A stretch of DNA of 64,000 nucleotides, taken from Escherichia coli (lineage in GTDB: Bacteria > Pseudomonadota > Gammaproteobacteria > Enterobacterales > Enterobacteriaceae). The stretch lies in NCBI GenBank assembly GCA_002099625.1, contig GCA_002099625.1_4857.1; one strand, written 5' to 3'. The position numbers were made by a program, and so were the translations under genes. The notes under the pieces are model-generated. The model had not been told where the DNA came from and made no database searches. It worked only from the letters and a program-made list of their open reading frames with translations. Below, piece after piece: positions 1,921-31,169 of the stretch. Positions within the stretch are counted from its first letter, which is position 1, and each line of letters opens with the position of its first letter.

Positions 1921-2493
1921 TTACTCTTTAGGTGCGGTAGTCTGTTGCTTCGCGTTGCTCTTATTCAGCTTATACTCAACGACTTTGGCACCAATGGCCA
2001 TCGAATTGTAAGCAAGCGTCTTAATCGGCCATGTAAAGAACACGGCCTGAGCAAACAAAGGTAAGAGCGCCACAATCAACACATCCGTCAATTCTTGCGG
2101 ATAGTGCAGGTGTGTATCCCAGGCCATTGCTGCGGAGACCAGTACGGTGGTAAGCACCAGTAAAGCGATAAGGACTTTCTGAGGACCTTTTAAATTCGGC
2201 CACAGGGTCAATAACGTTTCTTTGGCGAGCTTTTCATCCATACTCTCCACAGCTGCTTTCGCCTGCGATTCAAACGTCTTCGCCATATTCCCAACCTGTT
2301 CAAGAATCAGGGGGCGCAATGACGTAAGAATCACGTTAGCGGGTTTAGTAACATCAATTTCGACATCACTTCCCAAAGCGGTCTGAGCGGCTGCTTTTAG
2401 TCGGGTGCTCTCTTCCAGGCTTAATTTATTGGTGCCCGCCTGGATAAGAACATCCAACACATCCGTCGAGGCTTCTTGCAAAGACTGCGACAT
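1921..2493 (-). CDS. hypothetical integral membrane protein
   Basis: 190-aa ORF with two or more hydrophobic helices (LIALLVLTTVLVSAAMAW; VLIVALLPLFAQAVFFTWPI). Confidence 0.5.
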   Translation of the reverse strand: MSQSLQEASTDVLDVLIQAGTNKLSLEESTRLKAAAQTALGSDVEIDVTKPANVILTSLRPLILEQVGNMAKTFESQAKAAVESMDEKLAKETLLTLWPNLKGPQKVLIALLVLTTVLVSAAMAWDTHLHYPQELTDVLIVALLPLFAQAVFFTWPIKTLAYNSMAIGAKVVEYKLNKSNAKQQTTAPKE

Positions 2494-2495
2494 CG

Positions 2496-3146
2496 CTATT
2501 TCCTCCGGCGTCTTCCTTTCTGCTTACCGGCCTTAGCTTTAGGAACTTTAACCTTGGGCGGAAGGAGACTATTTAGGTTTAATAAGTTGACCCTGACGAA
2601 GATATTACCCACCGCCACGGCATCGATACTGTGTTCATCCAATACCGATAAGTCGCACCGGGTATGGTTCGCGTAGAGTTTGGTCACCGCTTGTTGCATA
2701 TGCGATTTATCTGTACCCTTTGCTTCCACACCAACGTACGACTTCACAATAATAGGATTAAACCCATGGAGATATTTTTCGGGAAACACGTCCCAAAGCG
2801 TTCGCCGCAACATCAGTTGCAATTCCACCCCAGATTCGTACGCTGAGAGCTTAGCTCTTCGCATGAACGGAGTTTCGGTAGCGACAAAAGTCGGCCTTGC
2901 CAGTTTTAAAAACTCACGAAAGCGTTCTTCTAATTCTACCAAACGCGCATCGCGTTTCCCTACGCACTCACCAAAAGAGCCATTGTGCGTAGGGTCCGCA
3001 ACATGAGCCGTGCCCGCCCAGACAACTTCACCTTGAGGTTGGCCAAATTCCCAGTCGATAACCGCCATCCCAAGATGGGCAGTACCGGGGTCAACAGCCG
3101 CAATCCTCACCATACTGTCGGGTAACCTCGGCTCAGGAATCAGCAT
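2496..3146 (-). CDS. ruvC: RuvC-like Holliday-junction resolvase with basic C-terminal tail
   Basis: N-terminal IAAVDPGTAHLGMAVID resembles the RuvC motif (I-x-G-I-DPG-S/T...G-x-G/A-VI); acidic ATETPF; C-terminal D-x-x-S-IDAVAVG resembles the RuvC D-x-x-DALAIA motif; tail PKVKVPKAKAGKQKGRRRRK. Confidence 0.6.
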   Translation of the reverse strand: MLIPEPRLPDSMVRIAAVDPGTAHLGMAVIDWEFGQPQGEVVWAGTAHVADPTHNGSFGECVGKRDARLVELEERFREFLKLARPTFVATETPFMRRAKLSAYESGVELQLMLRRTLWDVFPEKYLHGFNPIIVKSYVGVEAKGTDKSHMQQAVTKLYANHTRCDLSVLDEHSIDAVAVGNIFVRVNLLNLNSLLPPKVKVPKAKAGKQKGRRRRK

Positions 3147-4033
3147 CAGTTAGCTGTCCCTAAAAACCACGGTGCCGGCTGGCCGATACGGATGGTCAGT
3201 GACAGACGATCGTTGGTCTGTGCCAGGTTAGTGAACAGGGAGATGTAGTACAACGCCTGCACACCGATAGCTTCGTCGTAGCTGAACTGTGAACCGGTAG
3301 CCGACTCACCCGTTTCAGGGGTATCAACGCCAGAGCACAGCGCAATTTCAGAGATAATCGAACTGCGTGGCGTACCACGTAGAATCGCCGTCACGTTCAT
3401 GTATTCCTGAACATCAAACTCAGTCCATGGAATCACCAGGTCCGCGCCCGATTCAACATAACGACCGTCGGGGATCTCTACAGTGCCGTCATCGTCGTAA
3501 TCGTAGTCTGGGAGTTCTTTCGGTACCGGGTTCAGTTCCGCATCGGTATAGACGAAATCTTTGACGGTTTCAACACCGTTTTCGCGAGTGATATCCAGGT
3601 CAGTGGTCTTCACTGCGCGCATGTCGATACGTTTCAGATAATACGCCCAGTAATCCCGCGCGCCGATAGTTTCACGAGTACGGAAAGCGTACTGTTTACG
3701 TTGCTCATCAGATAAGTCATTATCCAATGTACGCAGTACCAATGGAACGCGCGAGAACATCCCTGACGTAATCGGGGATTTCGCGACAGGAACAACGTCT
3801 GCCACAACATCAGACTGATCAACGATGTGACCACGGTTACCCACGCACATGTATCCTAAATGCGGACGTGTAGCGCCATCGGGAACTTTCGAGGTCATGA
3901 GTTTATAAAACTCGTTCATCGTGGATTTCTGTGGGTACTGCACGTCAGCACCTGTCAATAACGCGGTCGTAAGTCGCATCGCGTTAAGAGTCACTGTTGA
4001 CAGTTTACCGTCGTAAACTTTGGTGTTAGCCAT
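3146..4033 (-). CDS. hypothetical protein
   Basis: 295-aa ORF, TAATG-type overlap with downstream gene; no motif recognised. Confidence 0.5.
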   Translation of the reverse strand: MANTKVYDGKLSTVTLNAMRLTTALLTGADVQYPQKSTMNEFYKLMTSKVPDGATRPHLGYMCVGNRGHIVDQSDVVADVVPVAKSPITSGMFSRVPLVLRTLDNDLSDEQRKQYAFRTRETIGARDYWAYYLKRIDMRAVKTTDLDITRENGVETVKDFVYTDAELNPVPKELPDYDYDDDGTVEIPDGRYVESGADLVIPWTEFDVQEYMNVTAILRGTPRSSIISEIALCSGVDTPETGESATGSQFSYDEAIGVQALYYISLFTNLAQTNDRLSLTIRIGQPAPWFLGTAN

Positions 4034-6755: not shown

Positions 6756-9500
6756 ATGGAAGATATTAGTAAATTAACGGGCGACCCCGCGGTAGCTGCC
6801 ATACTGCGTAAGTCCACGAGCCCGTCGGCTCAGCAGCAACGCGGTAAGCGTGAAGATGGCGGCGTTACACCAACCCGTACAGAACTCACGGGCATTGCGA
6901 GTAGCCGCATTCGCACCGTTAAAAATGCCGAACGTATCTTTGATGCGCTCCCTGAGTTAGAGGTCATTGTTACCATCGCGACCTCCTCACTCCTGTCCAC
7001 AAAAGATTTGATTAACACCACGCTGATTTACGACAACGTGGCTGATATCCCGATCGACCTGCGTCAACAGTTGTTGGAACCTGTGCGTGAATTCCATGAC
7101 CACACGCGCCAGTTACCCAACAAACTGTATCAGTGGATTTACGATGCACTGAAATCCAAAGGCGCGAGCCCGGTGTTGCTGATTTCAGATACCGGATTCG
7201 ATGAACTCTTCGGCTTAAAGCCGTCTGTTGCAACCGAATCGTTGCGCCGTAGCCAATCTGACTTCTTTGAACGTCAGTTGGGTATCCTGGGCAAGATTGG
7301 CGGTGAAAACAAACCGAAGGTTGGTGTAGAAAGTATTCTGGGCCGTGCACGTGGCGCTGACAAGCCCACCAAGCCACAAACCATTAAACTTAACTTTGCA
7401 GCAGCCCCTAACAGTCCGTTTAAAGCAGACGGTATGTTAGCTTCCCTGGATATCGTTATCACCGACAACCCGCGTATTACCCTGCTACCAGAGGCTTATC
7501 GCCGTGTGGCACAGGAGAATGCTCGCACCGGCCTGTTCGGTCAGTTAGAGCAGTACGCATATGAACAACCTTCTACGCCGACAGGTGCGTCAGAGTATAA
7601 CGCTGACCAGTTCACAGACAGTGAACAAGAGAAGGCAAAACTCGGTTTAATCAACATCGGCGACCTCAACGAAGCGTACCAGAAAACGCCTGAGCAAAAG
7701 CTTTACGGCGAAGTACCGAAGATGAGTTTCTCCGATGCCAACAAAATCGAATACACGGAACGATTACTGCCAGCAGAGTCCACACTCCCGCTCGTTATCG
7801 GCGACGATGTTCGTAACCCCATAGGTTATCTGGCCATCGTTGACGAAATGGGTAACTTCATTAACTCGCGCTCCACACTTTACGGTGATGCGAACTTCAT
7901 GAACTACCTGAACAACGACGGTATGGTGGATTCAACAATCAACCGTGCGAATCTGGGGATGGGCAACACAACCCGAATCACACCAGACATTGCTAACCGC
8001 TTAACAGCGCGTTATGGTGAAATTGCTGAAGACCAGCTAACCAAAGCTCTGGGTGAGGCGTTGGGTGGTGCTGAGATTAGCATGACAGTAACCGAAACGT
8101 TCAGCCGTATCATGCTGGCGCGCCATCTGGCAAAACGTCATACGCAGGTTATCTATATTCCTGCGGAAAACCTTTGCTATTTTGCCACGGACTTTGATGA
8201 AGATGGTATCGGTGTATCTATTACCGAACGCTCGTTCGTTATCTCTACTGTCCGTATGGCGCTGTTGTTCGCTACCATGAACTCTGCGGTGTTGAACTCT
8301 GCACGTCACATGCAGTACGACATTGAGTTGGCACCAGATGACATGAACGGTCAGAAAACAATTGACCAGCTGAAAACAGACATCATGAACTCCTATAACC
8401 GTCGTCAACCGATGTGGGGGGACATGAACGACACCTGGGCAATGACGACAAACGCAGGTATTGCGTTTAACGTTATTGGTAACGACTACTACGGTAGTAC
8501 CAAAGTGTCTGTGTCGGACACTACGCCGGATTATAAATACCCGGATAAGGATTTCGACGAAGGTCTGTTACGACGTACTTGTCACATCGCAGGTGTTGAC
8601 CCTGACCTGGTAATGACCCCCGAGAACATCGAGTTTGCTTCACAGATCTTCTCTAAATCGTTACTGGTCACCCAGCAGGTTGTTAAGAAGCAAGAGATTC
8701 TCTCTAAGCCACTGACACGTTACGTAGTTAATGGGATGTTGGCCTCTCCGTCGTTGCAATCAGCGATGATTAAAATCATTGCAGAGTACATCAATGCTAA
8801 CGGCAATGGGATGACTACTGACCAGATTACGAAAAAGGTCTCTGAGTATCTGGCTGCGTTTATCAACGGTATGAAAGTAACCTTACCACCGCCAGACACC
8901 TCTGCAGCAGCTTCGCAGATGGAGCTGTTCGATAAACGTACGGAGTTCTTTGAGAAGCTGGCTGATCTGGTTGTAACGGATGACATTGCTGCGCAACTCC
9001 AGCAAGAAGGTATCTCGATGGACCCGAACGATCTGAAGACGATGATCAAATCCTTCTATACGCGCAACTGGCTGCGTAAACAAGGTATTGAAACCGACTT
9101 CTTCGATCTGGTTTACGACGATGATTCTCGTCAGGACAACATCACCATGATGACTGATGAAGCGATGGCTGCTTCGAAAACGCTGATTCAATTGGCGAAA
9201 CGTTTCACCGGGCGACTGGAAACGTTAGCGAAGAATGCCGACCTTGATCCTAACGATGCTTCCGGCGGATTCGGTGGTGGTTTTGATGCGGGCGGTGACA
9301 CCGGCGGTGGTGATGGGGATCTCGGCGGTGGGGGTGACGATGATTTAGACCTCGATCTCGATACGGATAACGGCACCGGTGGTGATAGTACAGAGGAAAC
9401 TACTGAGTCGACCGAAACCACGGAAACAACTACCGAGGGAACGGAAGGCACAGAAGGCGGTGAAGGAACTACCGACGACAACCCAGACAACGTCCTCTAA
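6756..9500 (+). CDS. hypothetical large protein (914 aa) with acidic Gly/Asp/Glu/Thr-rich low-complexity C-terminal tail; possibly virion-associated
   Basis: ATG with GGAGA 5 nt upstream; last ~75 aa are GGFGGGFDAGGDTGGGDGDLGGGGDDDLDLDLDTDNGTGGDSTEETTESTETTETTTEGTEGTEGGEGTTDDNPDNVL; followed by a strong bidirectional terminator. Confidence 0.6.
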   Translation: MEDISKLTGDPAVAAILRKSTSPSAQQQRGKREDGGVTPTRTELTGIASSRIRTVKNAERIFDALPELEVIVTIATSSLLSTKDLINTTLIYDNVADIPIDLRQQLLEPVREFHDHTRQLPNKLYQWIYDALKSKGASPVLLISDTGFDELFGLKPSVATESLRRSQSDFFERQLGILGKIGGENKPKVGVESILGRARGADKPTKPQTIKLNFAAAPNSPFKADGMLASLDIVITDNPRITLLPEAYRRVAQENARTGLFGQLEQYAYEQPSTPTGASEYNADQFTDSEQEKAKLGLINIGDLNEAYQKTPEQKLYGEVPKMSFSDANKIEYTERLLPAESTLPLVIGDDVRNPIGYLAIVDEMGNFINSRSTLYGDANFMNYLNNDGMVDSTINRANLGMGNTTRITPDIANRLTARYGEIAEDQLTKALGEALGGAEISMTVTETFSRIMLARHLAKRHTQVIYIPAENLCYFATDFDEDGIGVSITERSFVISTVRMALLFATMNSAVLNSARHMQYDIELAPDDMNGQKTIDQLKTDIMNSYNRRQPMWGDMNDTWAMTTNAGIAFNVIGNDYYGSTKVSVSDTTPDYKYPDKDFDEGLLRRTCHIAGVDPDLVMTPENIEFASQIFSKSLLVTQQVVKKQEILSKPLTRYVVNGMLASPSLQSAMIKIIAEYINANGNGMTTDQITKKVSEYLAAFINGMKVTLPPPDTSAAASQMELFDKRTEFFEKLADLVVTDDIAAQLQQEGISMDPNDLKTMIKSFYTRNWLRKQGIETDFFDLVYDDDSRQDNITMMTDEAMAASKTLIQLAKRFTGRLETLAKNADLDPNDASGGFGGGFDAGGDTGGGDGDLGGGGDDDLDLDLDTDNGTGGDSTEETTESTETTETTTEGTEGTEGGEGTTDDNPDNVL

Positions 9501-9562: not shown

Positions 9563-9863
9563 AATCTTCTGTAGCAGCTTTGGGTTTATTAACCAGTTCG
9601 TCGAGCATGATACCAATCGCCAGAGGGTCGTTCTGGAAAGGTTCTAGCTTTTCCAATACCTTTGTATCCTTTGCTGCTTTTAACGCCTTCAGGAGGCCTT
9701 TACGGGCGTTATAGAAGATTTGCCAGCGACGTCCATGACTGATCGCTGTTTTGGCTTTGTGGAAGTCGGCTAAGAAAGCTTCAGTCGCTTTGTTTTCAGG
9801 TAACTCAAAGCGAAAACGCACACTACGCTCAAAATCCATGTTGACAACAATGAACTTTACCAT
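9561..9863 (-). CDS. hypothetical protein
   Basis: 100-aa ORF, ATG start with GAGG nearby; preceded by an AT-rich palindrome. Confidence 0.45.
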   Translation of the reverse strand: MVKFIVVNMDFERSVRFRFELPENKATEAFLADFHKAKTAISHGRRWQIFYNARKGLLKALKAAKDTKVLEKLEPFQNDPLAIGIMLDELVNKPKAATED

Positions 9864-20216: not shown

Positions 20217-20363
20217 TTAACTTTTGTTTAGTAGTATTTCACCTCCTAAACCCTTGATACGACGAACAGTGTTCTGCTTGGGCGCAGTCAACTGTTGTAC
20301 ACGTTGGTTGAATTGGGTTTGCTTAACGTAATAGTTAAGTATTTGCGAACGTAGTTGTTCCAT
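20217..20363 (-). CDS. small Gln-rich protein (48 aa), paralogue 1 of a tandem pair
   Basis: ATG at 20363 with AAGGAGG RBS; MEQLRSQILNYYVKQTQFNQRVQQLTAPKQNTVRRIKGLGGEILLNKS; followed by hairpin CCCGAGTG-ttccag-CACTCGGG (20179-20200). Track ORF is a longer upstream extension. Confidence 0.4.
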   Translation of the reverse strand: MEQLRSQILNYYVKQTQFNQRVQQLTAPKQNTVRRIKGLGGEILLNKS

Positions 20364-20476
20364 GTAGTGCCTCCTTAGGCAGGTTGTTAATATATCGCTG
20401 CGCTGTGGTGGTACACAATGCACCGATATACTGTCACGGGAGTTAAAAGGGGTGCTCGAACACCCCTGGTTAGTGT

Positions 20477-20632
20477 TACTTCTTATTGAAGATGATGTCA
20501 CCTCCTAGTCCTTTAATGGTACGGGTGGAAGTCTGCGTTGGGCGGCTAACCTCTTGCAGACGTTGTTGAAAAGCGACTTGTTTCAGCTGTTGCTGACGCA
20601 GTTGTTGCATAAAGGTATTCATGTTAACCTCT
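20477..20632 (-). CDS. small Gln-rich protein (51 aa), paralogue 2 of a tandem pair
   Basis: ATG at 20632 with GAGG RBS; MNTFMQQLRQQQLKQVAFQQRLQEVSRPTQTSTRTIKGLGGDIIFNKK; shares the C-terminal motif R-x-IKGLGG(D/E)I with paralogue 1; followed by hairpin AGGGGTG-ctcgaa-CACCCCT (20448-20467). Confidence 0.4.
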
Positions 20633-20735: not shown

Positions 20736-21596
20736 CTACGGTTTATAATCAACTTCGTTGATCTTGCCGCAAGCCGGACAAGCAATGTTCATTGTCTGCG
20801 AAGTATAGCGATGGGTTCTCGGTACTGTAGCGACATGGTTGCGGTTACAGCCGGAACACGTCCAGCCAACCACTGGTGCCTTCGATTGTTTCTGGGCAGG
20901 TGTGTCTTCTTTTAACAATGCGACTACCGCGTGAAATTTACGAAGCTCTGCGTTAACATGCGCTTCCCAGTCGGCGTCCAAACGCGCCGTGAACCAACGT
21001 TGAATCTTCTGGCCAAGTCCGTCTTGATTTTCTTCTTCATGGGACATCACAAACTTGAGATTTGCACGACCCCATTGCACGACGTTCTCTACTTTAATCC
21101 CGTCTACGGTGTCGCTGATTGGCGTATAGTTAAAAGTTGGATAGGTGAGATAACAAGCTTCAGCTGTTGCAAAGACAGTATTGCCTTCAAACAGTGCCAT
21201 GGCCTCATCGCCCTTAGCATCCTTCTGTGCGGCTTCCAATCGTGGGCAATGGAAACCTTCAAGTTGCTGGATTTTGGTCGTTAGCACATTGATACCCTGT
21301 AGCACGGCAATGCGCTTTTTGCTGTCTGTGATCGTCGCCATTACCTTGCACAACGCGCGCGAGATAGCGCTATACATTGACGTTTTGCGGTTTTCATCGA
21401 GGAAACGCTCTTGCTGCTCCAGGTCGTAAGAAGACAGGCCGTAGCTCTGCCCTTCGACCAACACGACATAAGTACGACGTTTGTCGCGGTCCAGCTGGAC
21501 AATGGCCGCATCGGTTAACGGATCGCTAGCCAATACTTCGTGGTTGGGAGGTAGGGGGAAATCCGAACTTTTGATAAAATCAGTAATGCTGTACAT
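20736..21596 (-). CDS. hypothetical protein with C-terminal zinc-ribbon (four Cys)
   Basis: 286-aa ORF; C-terminus CSGCNRNH...CPACGKINEV is a C-x2-C...C-x2-C pattern; AAGGA RBS. Confidence 0.55.
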   Translation of the reverse strand: MYSITDFIKSSDFPLPPNHEVLASDPLTDAAIVQLDRDKRRTYVVLVEGQSYGLSSYDLEQQERFLDENRKTSMYSAISRALCKVMATITDSKKRIAVLQGINVLTTKIQQLEGFHCPRLEAAQKDAKGDEAMALFEGNTVFATAEACYLTYPTFNYTPISDTVDGIKVENVVQWGRANLKFVMSHEEENQDGLGQKIQRWFTARLDADWEAHVNAELRKFHAVVALLKEDTPAQKQSKAPVVGWTCSGCNRNHVATVPRTHRYTSQTMNIACPACGKINEVDYKP

Positions 21597-22033: not shown

Positions 22034-22061
22034 AAAAAATAATACCACCCGTAGGTGGTAT
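22034..22061 (-). terminator. intrinsic terminator downstream of 22075..22263
   Basis: Hairpin TACCACC-cgta-GGTGGTA (22043-22060) followed on the minus strand by TATTATTTTTTGCC. Confidence 0.5.
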
Positions 22062-22074
22062 TAAATTATCTATA

Positions 22075-22263
22075 CTACTTCTTCCCGAGTTCCCCACGGA
22101 ACTTCGCCAGCTCTTCTTTCCAGTCCGGCTTCGGTAGTGCGCTTTTCGGCCCCACGATAAACGTACGTTCTGAGGTTTGCGGATTCACCTCTACTGTTTC
22201 GTTATCTTCCACTTCGCGAAGCACGATTCCGTTTTTACCATCGTAATTAACTAAAACGCCCAT
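22075..22263 (-). CDS. hypothetical small protein (62 aa)
   Basis: ORF in a chain of TAATG-overlapping small genes. Confidence 0.35.
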   Translation of the reverse strand: MGVLVNYDGKNGIVLREVEDNETVEVNPQTSERTFIVGPKSALPKPDWKEELAKFRGELGKK

Positions 22264-22445
22264 TAGTAAATCTCCTGCTGCATTGGAAACACATTACCTG
22301 TCGGTGAGACGAGTAAGACTTGCGCGGTAACGTGAACAATTTCTTCTTCGTCCTGATGACGAACACCGTTAGTGAGATTATCCCACTCACGTTTAACACG
22401 AGGGTGAGATAAGAACTCGGCAAACTGCGTATCAGAAAAGTCCAT
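22263..22445 (-). CDS. hypothetical small acidic protein (60 aa)
   Basis: ATG at 22445 shares a TAATG overlap with the stop of the upstream mini-gene; MDFSDTQFAEFLSHPRVKREWDN... Confidence 0.35.
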   Translation of the reverse strand: MDFSDTQFAEFLSHPRVKREWDNLTNGVRHQDEEEIVHVTAQVLLVSPTGNVFPMQQEIY

Positions 22446-22588
22446 TAGCCGCGACCTGTGCACATGGCAACAGAGTTACCGTTATCGATGCATTTGTTGT
22501 AATCTTGAGTTACAGTGATAGACAGTACCGCGAAAGCAACAACAGCAACGATTGCGAAGATGGCACGTTTATGGTTACGAGTTAACAT
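22445..22588 (-). CDS. small single-pass membrane protein (47 aa), below the ORF-track size cutoff
   Basis: ATG at 22588 with AGGAG 8 nt upstream; MLTRNHKRAIFAIVAVVAFAVLSITVTQDYNKCIDNGNSVAMCTGRG; first gene after the 24-bp promoter motif. Confidence 0.4.
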   Translation of the reverse strand: MLTRNHKRAIFAIVAVVAFAVLSITVTQDYNKCIDNGNSVAMCTGRG

Positions 22589-22640
22589 GGTAATACTCCT
22601 TTAGCTTAATAGTCGATTGAGTTGATAGATTGTCTTCTAT

Positions 22641-22664
22641 CACCTAGGTAATATATATCTGAAA
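22641..22664 (-). promoter_or_regulatory. conserved element CACCTAGGTAATATATATCTGAAA (copy 1 of 2), putative phage promoter
   Basis: 24/24 identity with 31146-31169 and similar over ~40 bp; about 50 nt upstream of the ATG at 22588; minus-strand reading contains TATATATTAC. Confidence 0.5.
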
Positions 22665-22695
22665 TTATTTTTATTCAGAGTACACCCTCTATAAC

Positions 22696-22725
22696 GCTCT
22701 CAAACGCGTTTTGAGAGCTTTTATC
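22696..22725 (+). terminator. perfect 9-bp-stem hairpin with downstream TTTT on the plus strand, in an intergenic regulatory island
   Basis: GCTCTCAAA-cgcgt-TTTGAGAGC (22696-22718) followed by TTTTATCAC; no plus-strand gene upstream, so it may be an RNA structure or a binding-site palindrome rather than a terminator. Confidence 0.35.
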
Positions 22726-22727
22726 AC

Positions 22728-22786
22728 TTTAGAGGGTCGTTCTACCGTTAGAGTGGCTTTAGAAGGTTGTGTGTGCGTTTAGAGGG
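22728..22786. repeat. four imperfect direct repeats of TTAGAG(G/T)G-like units
   Basis: TTTAGAGGG (22728-22736), GTTAGAGTGG (22747-22756), TTTAGAAGG (22758-22766), TTTAGAGGG (22778-22786), spaced 11-20 bp. Confidence 0.45.
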
Positions 22787-22823
22787 CTAAAATAAAGAGA
22801 CCTGGTCTCACAAGGAGACCAGG
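22786..22823 (-). terminator. intrinsic terminator downstream of 22831..23628
   Basis: Hairpin CCTGGTCTC-acaag-GAGACCAGG (22801-22823) followed on the minus strand by TCTCTTTATTTTAGC. Confidence 0.6.
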
Positions 22824-22830
22824 CACACTT

Positions 22831-31145: not shown

Positions 31146-31169
31146 CACCTAGGTAATATATATCTGAAA
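31146..31169 (-). promoter_or_regulatory. conserved element CACCTAGGTAATATATATCTGAAA (copy 2 of 2), putative phage promoter
   Basis: 24/24 identity with 22641-22664; lies between the terminator 31187-31227 and the ATG at 31100, about 45 nt upstream. Confidence 0.5.

Follow-up and report, generated by a model that had tools for sequence, protein, structure and literature searches.

A three-unit repeat array ahead of a jumbo-phage early promoter belongs to a family shared by unrelated phages, plasmids and prophages

What is carried by a 242-bp gap between two genes in the genome of a jumbo phage, and is it specific to this phage? The question is raised by the 64-kb stretch of DNA analysed here (the window), which is 97–99% identical to Salmonella phage SPN3US and its close relatives (genus Seoulvirus, jumbo phages of ~240 kb). 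The original prediction, made from the letters of the window, had described the gap as an intergenic regulatory island of 240 bp. The gap is present and is composite, being made up, in the direction of the genes, of a terminator, inverted copies of a repeat unit that are specific to this lineage, a three-unit array, an early promoter of the phiKZ type, and a 5' stem-loop leading into an operon of small genes (Table 1). The terminator and the promoter are ordinary elements, and it is the array that appears not to have been described as a family. Judging from its sequence, the window copy is a member of a family of three-unit arrays that crosses the boundaries between mobile elements, and we tentatively read it as an architectural DNA site for a conserved host protein.

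The family consensus has an AAA lead followed by CGCTYAGAAY GCGWTNNAGN GCGTTTTAGAGG, with three units at 10-bp spacing over ~35 bp. The window array (22717-22686, minus strand) differs from the degenerate family consensus CGCTYAGAAYGCGWTNNAGNGCGTTTTAGAGG at 3 of 32 positions and aligns column by column with the arrays of other jumbo-phage genera, and also with the plasmid-type array of contig L099/L101; shuffled 240-kb genomes gave zero or one match to the 32-nt consensus, even when up to 8 mismatches were allowed. The core motif TTAGAGGG is likewise clustered in the gap, with five copies (at most 1 mismatch) in 120 bp, which is unique in the window and in the complete 240-kb SPN3US genome and compares with a maximum of 2-3 copies in sixty random 240-kb sequences. 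The clustering test is post hoc, because the motif was picked after the locus had been seen, a weakness that the 32-nt consensus test does not have. Elsewhere in the window, a second cluster of the core motif near 20627 was rejected as an array, as it consists of a terminator stem (CCCTCTTACC/GGTAAGAGGG) and a ribosome-binding site, and a weak match to the 32-nt consensus on the plus strand at 9686-9717 (CCTTCAGGAGGCCTTTACGGGCGTTATAGAAG, 8 of 32 positions mismatched) is probably due to chance.

With a degenerate pattern of two and a half units, 37 loci were retrieved from IMG/VR, including, beyond the jumbo-phage relatives, many contigs of 83-150 kb with a near-identical sequence, e.g. aaaaCCGCTTAGAATGCGTTTGAGAGCGTTTTAGAGG. 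Phage, plasmid and E. coli collections were searched by BLAST using a 40-nt consensus as query. Matches were found in 569 phage records, 441 of them covering at least 80% of the query, and by organism name these are phages of Salmonella (242), Klebsiella (136), Escherichia (69), Erwinia (40), Vibrio (27) and others. The carriers comprise T5-like Demerecviridae, Klebsiella siphophages of ~48-52 kb, Erwinia phages of ~85 kb, myophages of ~140-150 kb and Vibrio jumbo phages. Among plasmids there were 1,345 with a match (923 conjugative), often in two copies per plasmid and mostly in origin modules of the IncX type, and 1,114 of the 5,426 complete E. coli genomes had one, on chromosomes as well as on plasmids. 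In the 59 distinct instances of a second search pattern, positions that the pattern had left free are also conserved, namely the AAA lead at -9 to -7, a T at -1 and a T at +10. The conserved feature of the array is its primary sequence together with the 10-bp phasing, and the array usually has the same direction as the next gene. In several element groups a semi-conserved TGTAC is found ~15 nt upstream.

The array is also separable from the promoter that follows it in the window. We compared the syntenic gaps in relatives whose upstream protein is 40-80% identical, and three units at 10-11-bp spacing (GCGYTTAGAR GCGTYWSAGR GCGTYT..RGGG) are kept just upstream of the same promoter in Erskinevirus (phiEaH2 and Asesino, with four units each), Machinavirus (ChrisDB, Caitlin, pEa_SNUABM_9 and Huxley), Wellingtonvirus and uncultivated jumbo-phage contigs. 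The spacers flanking the array are not conserved among these phages. Altogether, four jumbo-phage genera besides that of the window retain the array at the syntenic site. In the Derbicusvirus relatives (Phobos, CR5 and Derbicus), terminator and promoter are present but the array is absent. In SPAsTU, pEa_SNUABM_29 and pSal-SNUABM-04 (three phages from two genera), a gene for a protein of ~131-135 amino acids (aa) separates the array from the early promoter, starting 6-20 bp past the third unit, and the promoter comes only after it. Since the product is a standalone Nlig-Ia (NAD+-binding ligase domain Ia) protein, it was rejected as a DNA binder. The ribosome-binding site of this gene coincides in part with unit 3 of the array (GCGTCTGGAGGctattcgcATG), and no early promoter can be recognised ahead of the gene. 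SPN3US itself has a second good array (CGCTTTTAGAGAGCGTTACAGAGCGTTTTAGAGG) at 137546-137577, between the convergent ACQ60_gp108 and gp107 and followed by a terminator hairpin, in surroundings of tail and lysis genes and with no promoter nearby. A 225-kb contig (L099/L101) carries an array of the plasmid type directly upstream of the same jumbo-phage promoter, and is therefore a direct intermediate between the window array and the wider family. Taken over all carriers, the array is independent of any single promoter type, polymerase or replicon.

Which protein could recognise such a site? An all-against-all comparison of the open reading frames (ORFs) within 2.5 kb of 60 instances gave no protein family common across the element groups, and a neighbouring protein was rejected as the common binder, as the clusters mirror the separate element groups only. 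The lack of a common protein family is in line with a binder supplied by the host. In the reading that we favour, to which we give a probability of roughly 40%, the array is an architectural double-stranded DNA site for a conserved host protein. Its three units would serve as successive sites, all on the same face of the helix, for a DNA-binding protein not common to the carriers, most likely a conserved gammaproteobacterial host factor. Mobile elements would put it at the boundaries of modules, typically past a terminator and upstream of early or maintenance genes, where, whichever polymerase is in use, it would organise the local DNA architecture by bending, anchoring or insulation. In the SPN3US-like phages, the site would have been multiplied into a back-to-back inverted arrangement, by which more copies of the protein, or a higher-order oligomer, would be bound.

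The context found in T5 bears on this reading. In T5 (NC_005859) the array lies at ~9348-9380, inside the annotated injection stop signal (iss), ~50 bp past the last pre-early terminator, and other T5-like carriers include Shivani, SHSML-45, Seafire and many more. Downstream of the T5 array we found a LexA-box-like palindrome (TACTGTATAAATATACAGTA), two DnaA-box pairs and further repeats, the Shivani region having been examined likewise. T5-type repeats such as AAATGAGAATCATTATCATT agree at 14 of 15 positions with the core of the Fur box. The position of the T5 array among apparent LexA, DnaA and Fur-like sites fits a host factor, and from these motif matches the injection stop region of T5 may be a cluster of host-factor sites. 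In the injection stop regions of both T5 (L154, 600-920) and Shivani (L060, 1790-2090), a near-consensus LexA-box palindrome stands beside the known DnaA-box pairs. The annotated major nick is ~370 bp away from the array and the BF23 paper contains no nick consensus, and a role of the array as the T5 nick site was rejected on these grounds.

The iss (also called 'Repeat Region 3') resembles the window gap in having the same three-unit array directly after a terminator, in a conserved non-coding stretch with variable neighbouring genes. It differs in that the array is followed by the LexA-like palindrome, the DnaA-box pairs and more repeats instead of a promoter, and in that it lies within the terminal repeat, the first DNA to enter the cell. 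What the iss and the window have in common, as far as sequence goes, is the array itself, placed in T5 within the annotated signal, and any role of it in stopping the injection of T5 DNA is putative. The non-coding region of T5-like phages has been described as far better conserved than the adjacent genes and of unknown function, with homology outside the T5-like phages going unmentioned (Davison preprint). In the published analyses of T5-like phages that we consulted many repeats are named, the array is neither singled out nor noted beyond this group, and the region is treated as particular to such phages.

Several observations weigh against a site for a host protein. No binding protein was identified, and the units gave no convincing match to any host regulator motif known to us: neither the sites of PhoP, ArcA, OmpR, CpxR, PmrA, Fis, Lrp, IHF and Tus/Ter nor boxA, the lambda cosB R elements, the P2 cox box, KorA and the R6K iterons fit the family as a whole, and individual likenesses are leads only. 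The array is not part of the core genome of E. coli, ~80% of the genomes being without it, so that the host factor would have no equally strong site on the chromosome. Jumbo phages that form a nucleus are believed to keep most proteins of the host away from their DNA, which weakens the case for a host factor in an SPN3US-like phage. The contexts are heterogeneous, including the SPN3US copy between convergent genes and a copy inside the coding region of mobQ, and in T5-like phages there is no gene for ~1 kb downstream of the array. In favour of the site, a sigma70-like promoter is found within 200 bp on the same strand downstream of 15 of 47 instances, as against upstream of 5 of 47, but this is a modest enrichment that is driven mainly by one element group. 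More tentatively still, the array could be a so far unrecognised, horizontally shared cis element of gammaproteobacterial mobile DNA, ~35 bp long, which would recruit the same conserved host protein everywhere, maybe to hold or organise incoming DNA as is suspected for the T5 injection stop. It would then be used by virulent phages from six or more unrelated groups, by plasmids (those of the IncX type and small ones) and by prophages, and the nucleus-forming jumbo phages would have kept it and amplified it before an early operon.

The strongest of the competing explanations, ahead of DNA topology or curvature, of RNA or single-stranded DNA structure and of a phage-specific operator, in that order, is a cis element linked to replication. 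Its role would be that of an accessory origin component, or of a site at which host-type replication proteins load or prime, and in the jumbo phage it would mark or aid an origin. We consider this unlikely, but a good number of contexts point in this direction. Modules of the IncX type have two direct copies, separated by 400-650 bp from the 22-bp iterons and a DnaA box on the side away from rep, and ~55-105 bp upstream of stbDE/relE genes. In a 2-kb Rep/iteron plasmid the array is found ~240 bp beyond the iterons and an A-rich stretch, and in a 4-kb MobQ plasmid it is 375 bp upstream of rep, inside the 3' end of mobQ. One group of prophages has the array directly after a DnaT-domain initiator and a lambda-P-like loader, and in another group it is followed by strong sigma70 promoters and a replication-type protein with HTH_36. 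T5-like arrays adjoin the DnaA-box pairs mentioned above, and in the T5-like contigs L027, L036 and L043 a GAGATCTATTTGTTTT-type stretch ~55 bp upstream of the array is similar to the oriC 13-mer GATCTnTTnTTTT. In the window, a gene for a DnaB-like helicase is found ~2.6 kb from the array.

The initiators of the carriers are, however, unrelated, and the array is therefore not a set of initiator-specific iterons. DnaA boxes accompany it only in the T5-like and IncX contexts, with none within 1 kb of the window array, so that a general link between the two fails outside these groups. The cumulative GC skew, in itself uninformative about an origin, tracks gene direction and has no inflection at the array, near 65 kb of SPN3US, and no initiator-like gene adjoins the window array, which thus lacks both the cognate initiator and the skew switch of an iteron-type origin. 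The second SPN3US copy, among tail and lysis genes, also speaks against a replication link. A centromere of the parC or tubC type is not indicated either, as no partition NTPase or adaptor gene adjoining the array was annotated or detected in the window or in SPN3US. In T5, moreover, the origins were mapped near the centre of the genome and not in the terminal repeat (Davison preprint).

Somewhat less probable than a replication element is one that acts through DNA topology and independently of a dedicated protein, i.e. curved DNA or a gyrase or topoisomerase site that insulates transcription units, or else a passive linker for the exchange of modules. A/T runs recur in the array every ~10-11 bp (AAAA, AGAA, TTTTA), as would suit curvature, and the array typically stands past a terminator, in the gap of a convergent gene pair, or where an origin gives way to the operon that follows, adjoining in the three phages named above the inserted accessory gene cassette. 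The par locus of pSC101, a gyrase site beside an iteron origin, reportedly has a similar layout. The G/C positions (GCG, AG.GCG), in contrast, are conserved more strictly than curvature alone needs, and a passive linker would not be expected to stay more than 85% identical across unrelated phage families and plasmids.

The next explanation, a structured nucleic acid, arises from the arrangement of the units in the window itself. The original prediction had listed four direct repeats followed by a perfect palindrome with a 9-bp stem. The palindrome is present, and copies do lie at or near where they had been placed, but the unit is longer than the core motif (~10-12 bp, the first copy, R1, being GCGTTTAGAGGG on the other strand) and there are seven copies in two orientations, five directed away from the promoter and two towards it. 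On the plus strand, TTAGAGGG-like copies lie at 22779, 22759, 22748 and 22729, with an inverted copy at 22685, and on the gene strand the inverted units read as CCCTCTAAA-like copies at 22786, 22766, 22755 and 22736. Units also make up the two palindrome arms and the copy that follows them (GCTCTCAAAACGC, which is inverted, GCGTTTGAGAGC and GCGTTATAGAGGGT), and after the palindrome, in gene direction, there is an inverted copy (TATAGAGGG) at 22693-22685. The palindrome is the meeting point of inverted and forward units, unit 1 of the array having been turned in the SPN3US lineage into a mirror image of unit 2, and it forms the core of a longer imperfect palindrome at 22684-22737; the palindrome has a folding energy of -23.8 kcal/mol (z = -4.7). 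The four inverted copies look, from their sequence, like one or two decayed arrays facing away from the promoter.

Conservation of the repeats in related phages, which the original prediction had put forward as a check, holds for the forward units described above, whereas the set of four inverted copies and the perfect palindrome occur only in the SPN3US lineage and are absent from the other genera compared. Single inverted copies (CTAAACGC) adjoin the terminator in phiEaH2, Asesino, Caitlin, pEa_SNUABM_9 and Huxley, and in SPFM2 one pair of the palindrome is broken (GAGAGC to GAGGGC, with G for A).

If the array formed the conserved core or loop of a hairpin in RNA or single-stranded DNA, with the function, for example, of a small RNA, of a processing site or of a priming signal, the strong extended hairpin of the window lineage would be in line with it, as would the complementarity between the conserved lead AAAACGC and the unit heads GCGTTTT. 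Some instances also have flanks that are perfectly complementary and yet different from one another (CCCCTT/AAGGGG, CCCCG/CGGGG, CCGCT/AGCGG and GCGTT/AACGC). Over 46 distinct lead/tail combinations, a flank forms a duplex of -4.39 kcal/mol with its own partner and of -3.75 kcal/mol with swapped ones (permutation p ~0.01). Because own pairs are only slightly stabler than swapped ones and many instances have no stem, a conserved helix is not established; the closing helix around a conserved loop is attractive in single examples but marginal overall, and the complementarity of the flanks can be explained by partial inverted copies of the unit. The palindrome is lineage-specific and broken in SPFM2, and neither Rfam searches of the window region and six carrier loci nor a tRNA search gave a relevant match. 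The window array sits between a strong terminator and a promoter, and is therefore not obviously transcribed. We regard a structured RNA, which the original prediction had offered as its second option, as improbable. A coding explanation is also unlikely, as the variable positions show no spacing by three and a possible mini-ORF of 6 codons has no conserved ATG.

Table 1. Positions of the features of the gap and its surroundings (window coordinates unless a phage locus is named)
Feature	Position	Strand	Sequence or remark
Intergenic gap	22589-22830		From the stop of the 265-aa gene (ORF end 22831) to the ATG at 22588; genes on the minus strand
Intrinsic terminator of the 265-aa gene	22791..22824	minus	GCCTGGTCTC-cttgt-GAGACCAGGT at 22824-22800, then CTCTTTATTT
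Four inverted unit copies	22728..22788	plus	GCGTTTAGAGGG 22775-22786; GGCTTTAGAAGG 22755-22766; CCGTTAGAGTG 22745-22755; CACTTTAGAGGG 22725-22736
Perfect palindrome, 9-bp stem	22696-22718	.	GCTCTCAAA-cgcgt-TTTGAGAGC; 9 perfect pairs
Three-unit array	22686..22717	minus	CTCTCAAAAC / GCGTTTGAGA / GCGTTATAGAGG, preceded by the lead AAAAG
phiKZ-group early (virion RNA polymerase) promoter element	22638..22675	minus	AATAATTTCAGATATATATTACCTAGGTGATA; core AGATATATATTACCTAGGTGATA at 22660-22638
Promoter-proximal stem-loop	22620..22645	minus	GATAGA-agacaa-TCTATC; probably the 5' end of the transcript
Start of the downstream operon	22075..22588	minus	Genes of 47, 60 and 62 aa, joined by TAATG stop/start overlaps
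Perfect hairpin, 10-bp stem	22040-22063		TAATACCACC-tacg-GGTGGTATTA; between the third small gene and the next gene; T-runs on both strands
Inserted Nlig-Ia gene, SPAsTU (L015)	2449-2853		
Inserted Nlig-Ia gene, pEa_SNUABM_29 (L007)	2820-3215		
Inserted Nlig-Ia gene, pSal-SNUABM-04 (L019)	2434-2838		

The terminator and the promoter, both of which had been recognised correctly, are of known kinds. In the terminator scan, the hairpin directly 3' of the 265-aa gene (a late-type gene, homolog of SPN3US ACQ60_gp201) starts 7 nt past the stop codon and has a 10-bp stem, a 5-nt loop and a T-run, with a folding energy of -17.9 kcal/mol (z = -4.9). The stem is kept as a structure, with changed sequence, in 11 related jumbo-phage loci, and the element is an ordinary intrinsic (rho-independent) terminator. 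The promoter element recurs in the window at 31165, 15591, 14786 and 63649 (five copies together with that at 22660), has 23 matches at up to 3 mismatches in SPN3US, of which ~16 are convincing, mostly directly after terminators, and is near-invariant across 12 jumbo-phage loci. The island promoter is of a known kind because its sequence, AATAATTTCAGATATATATTACCTAGGTG, agrees with the published early-promoter consensuses of phiKZ, 201phi2-1, OBP and N1M2. The predicted consensus is TATATTAC for phiKZ and contains AWWWWWTTTCARRYAKATATTATYWAAGTG for OBP and N1M2, and that of 201phi2-1 is given in the same table (PMC7058600, Table 2). AT-rich motifs centred near -10 define the early promoters used by the injected virion RNA polymerase (reviewed in PMC7598289). 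In the literature on SPN3US promoters and transcription we found no transcript mapping, and the start site at the island promoter, expected ~8-10 nt past TATATTAC, is inferred.

The stem-loop next to the promoter has no significant folding energy of its own (z = -1.1), and equivalent inverted repeats follow other promoters of the AGATATATATTACYTAGGTGAG class and the homologous promoters of related phages. Over the SPN3US genome, the early promoters form two sub-classes, AGATATATATTACYTAGGTGAG, behind which a stem-loop stands where the transcript is likely to begin, and AGATAGATATTATCT, which is itself palindromic. In SPFM2 (L002, 488-541, corresponding to ~22660-22634 of the window) a 27-bp tandem duplication of the promoter core (agatatatattacctaggtgatagaag twice) gives two tandem early promoters.

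The island copy follows the phiKZ-group pattern of an element that recurs upstream of operons, and differs in having an array ~25 bp upstream, which is not part of the consensus and is found at only one of the ~16 convincing copies in SPN3US. A dedicated operator or activator array of a phage-encoded regulator for this promoter, no more probable than a structured RNA and last in our ranking, would be favoured by the spacing of ~25-70 bp to the promoter core that is kept in most jumbo relatives, and by back-to-back inverted copies and a palindrome suited to a dimeric or oligomeric regulator, but it conflicts with the same array in unrelated phages, plasmids and prophages that share no protein, with SPN3US promoters lacking the array and an SPN3US array lacking the promoter, with the Nlig-Ia gene that parts the two in three relatives, and with the Derbicusvirus promoters that stand without the array, and no combination of the site with a regulator gene and a promoter class was found. 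Of the regulator-binding array first proposed, then, the protein-binding part is retained as the most plausible (on account of the 10-bp phasing and of a sequence conserved far beyond the spacers), whereas a role as the dedicated site of the island promoter is unsupported, because unrelated elements with differing RNA polymerases carry the array as well.

Arrays of short direct repeats with a spacing close to a helical turn, in some cases in either orientation, are well known beside promoters or origins as iterons, operators and centromeres, such as the 22-bp iterons of R6K/IncX, the 11-bp repeats of R1 parC, the 12-bp repeats of pBtoxis tubC and the TTGC-N6-TTGC site of lambda CII. These are specific for a cognate protein that is encoded next to them, and they vary between replicons, whereas the three-unit array keeps the same sequence across replicons with unrelated Rep, partition and regulator genes. 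In the IncX modules it is found alongside the true 22-bp iterons and is distinct from them. Literature searches by topic (SPN3US promoters and transcription; jumbo-phage origins and iterons) and with the array sequence returned nothing on the array, although an older description is conceivable.

As to the genes next to the gap, a chain of four small genes coupled by TAATG had been predicted downstream, and there are three, with only two such overlaps (at 22447 and 22265). Pfam searches gave no match for the three products and no DNA-binding domain in the window proteins that neighbour the array. The hairpin after the third gene resembles a bidirectional terminator within the early operon and overlaps the GTG-extended form of the next ORF. 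Further along the operon, a 286-aa protein (20736-21596, minus strand), with no Pfam match, has two CxxC pairs at its C-terminus (CSGCNRNH...CPACGKINEV), possibly a zinc ribbon. Two adjacent small paralogous genes (~48 aa; 20476-20622 and ~20217-20363, minus strand), each preceded by its own hairpin, share a C-terminal ...TRTIKGLGGDIIFNKK motif.

If a near-unchanged site is indeed shared by T5-like, jumbo and other phages, IncX plasmids and prophages, it probably exploits a single conserved function of the host, one that mobile DNA may need at entry, in early expression or in replication. The identity of the binder would provide a testable handle on the long-unexplained injection stop region of T5, and would tell whether a DNA-binding protein of the host is still required by nucleus-forming jumbo phages. 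The array is, in addition, a simple and searchable annotation marker for the module boundaries of mobile elements.

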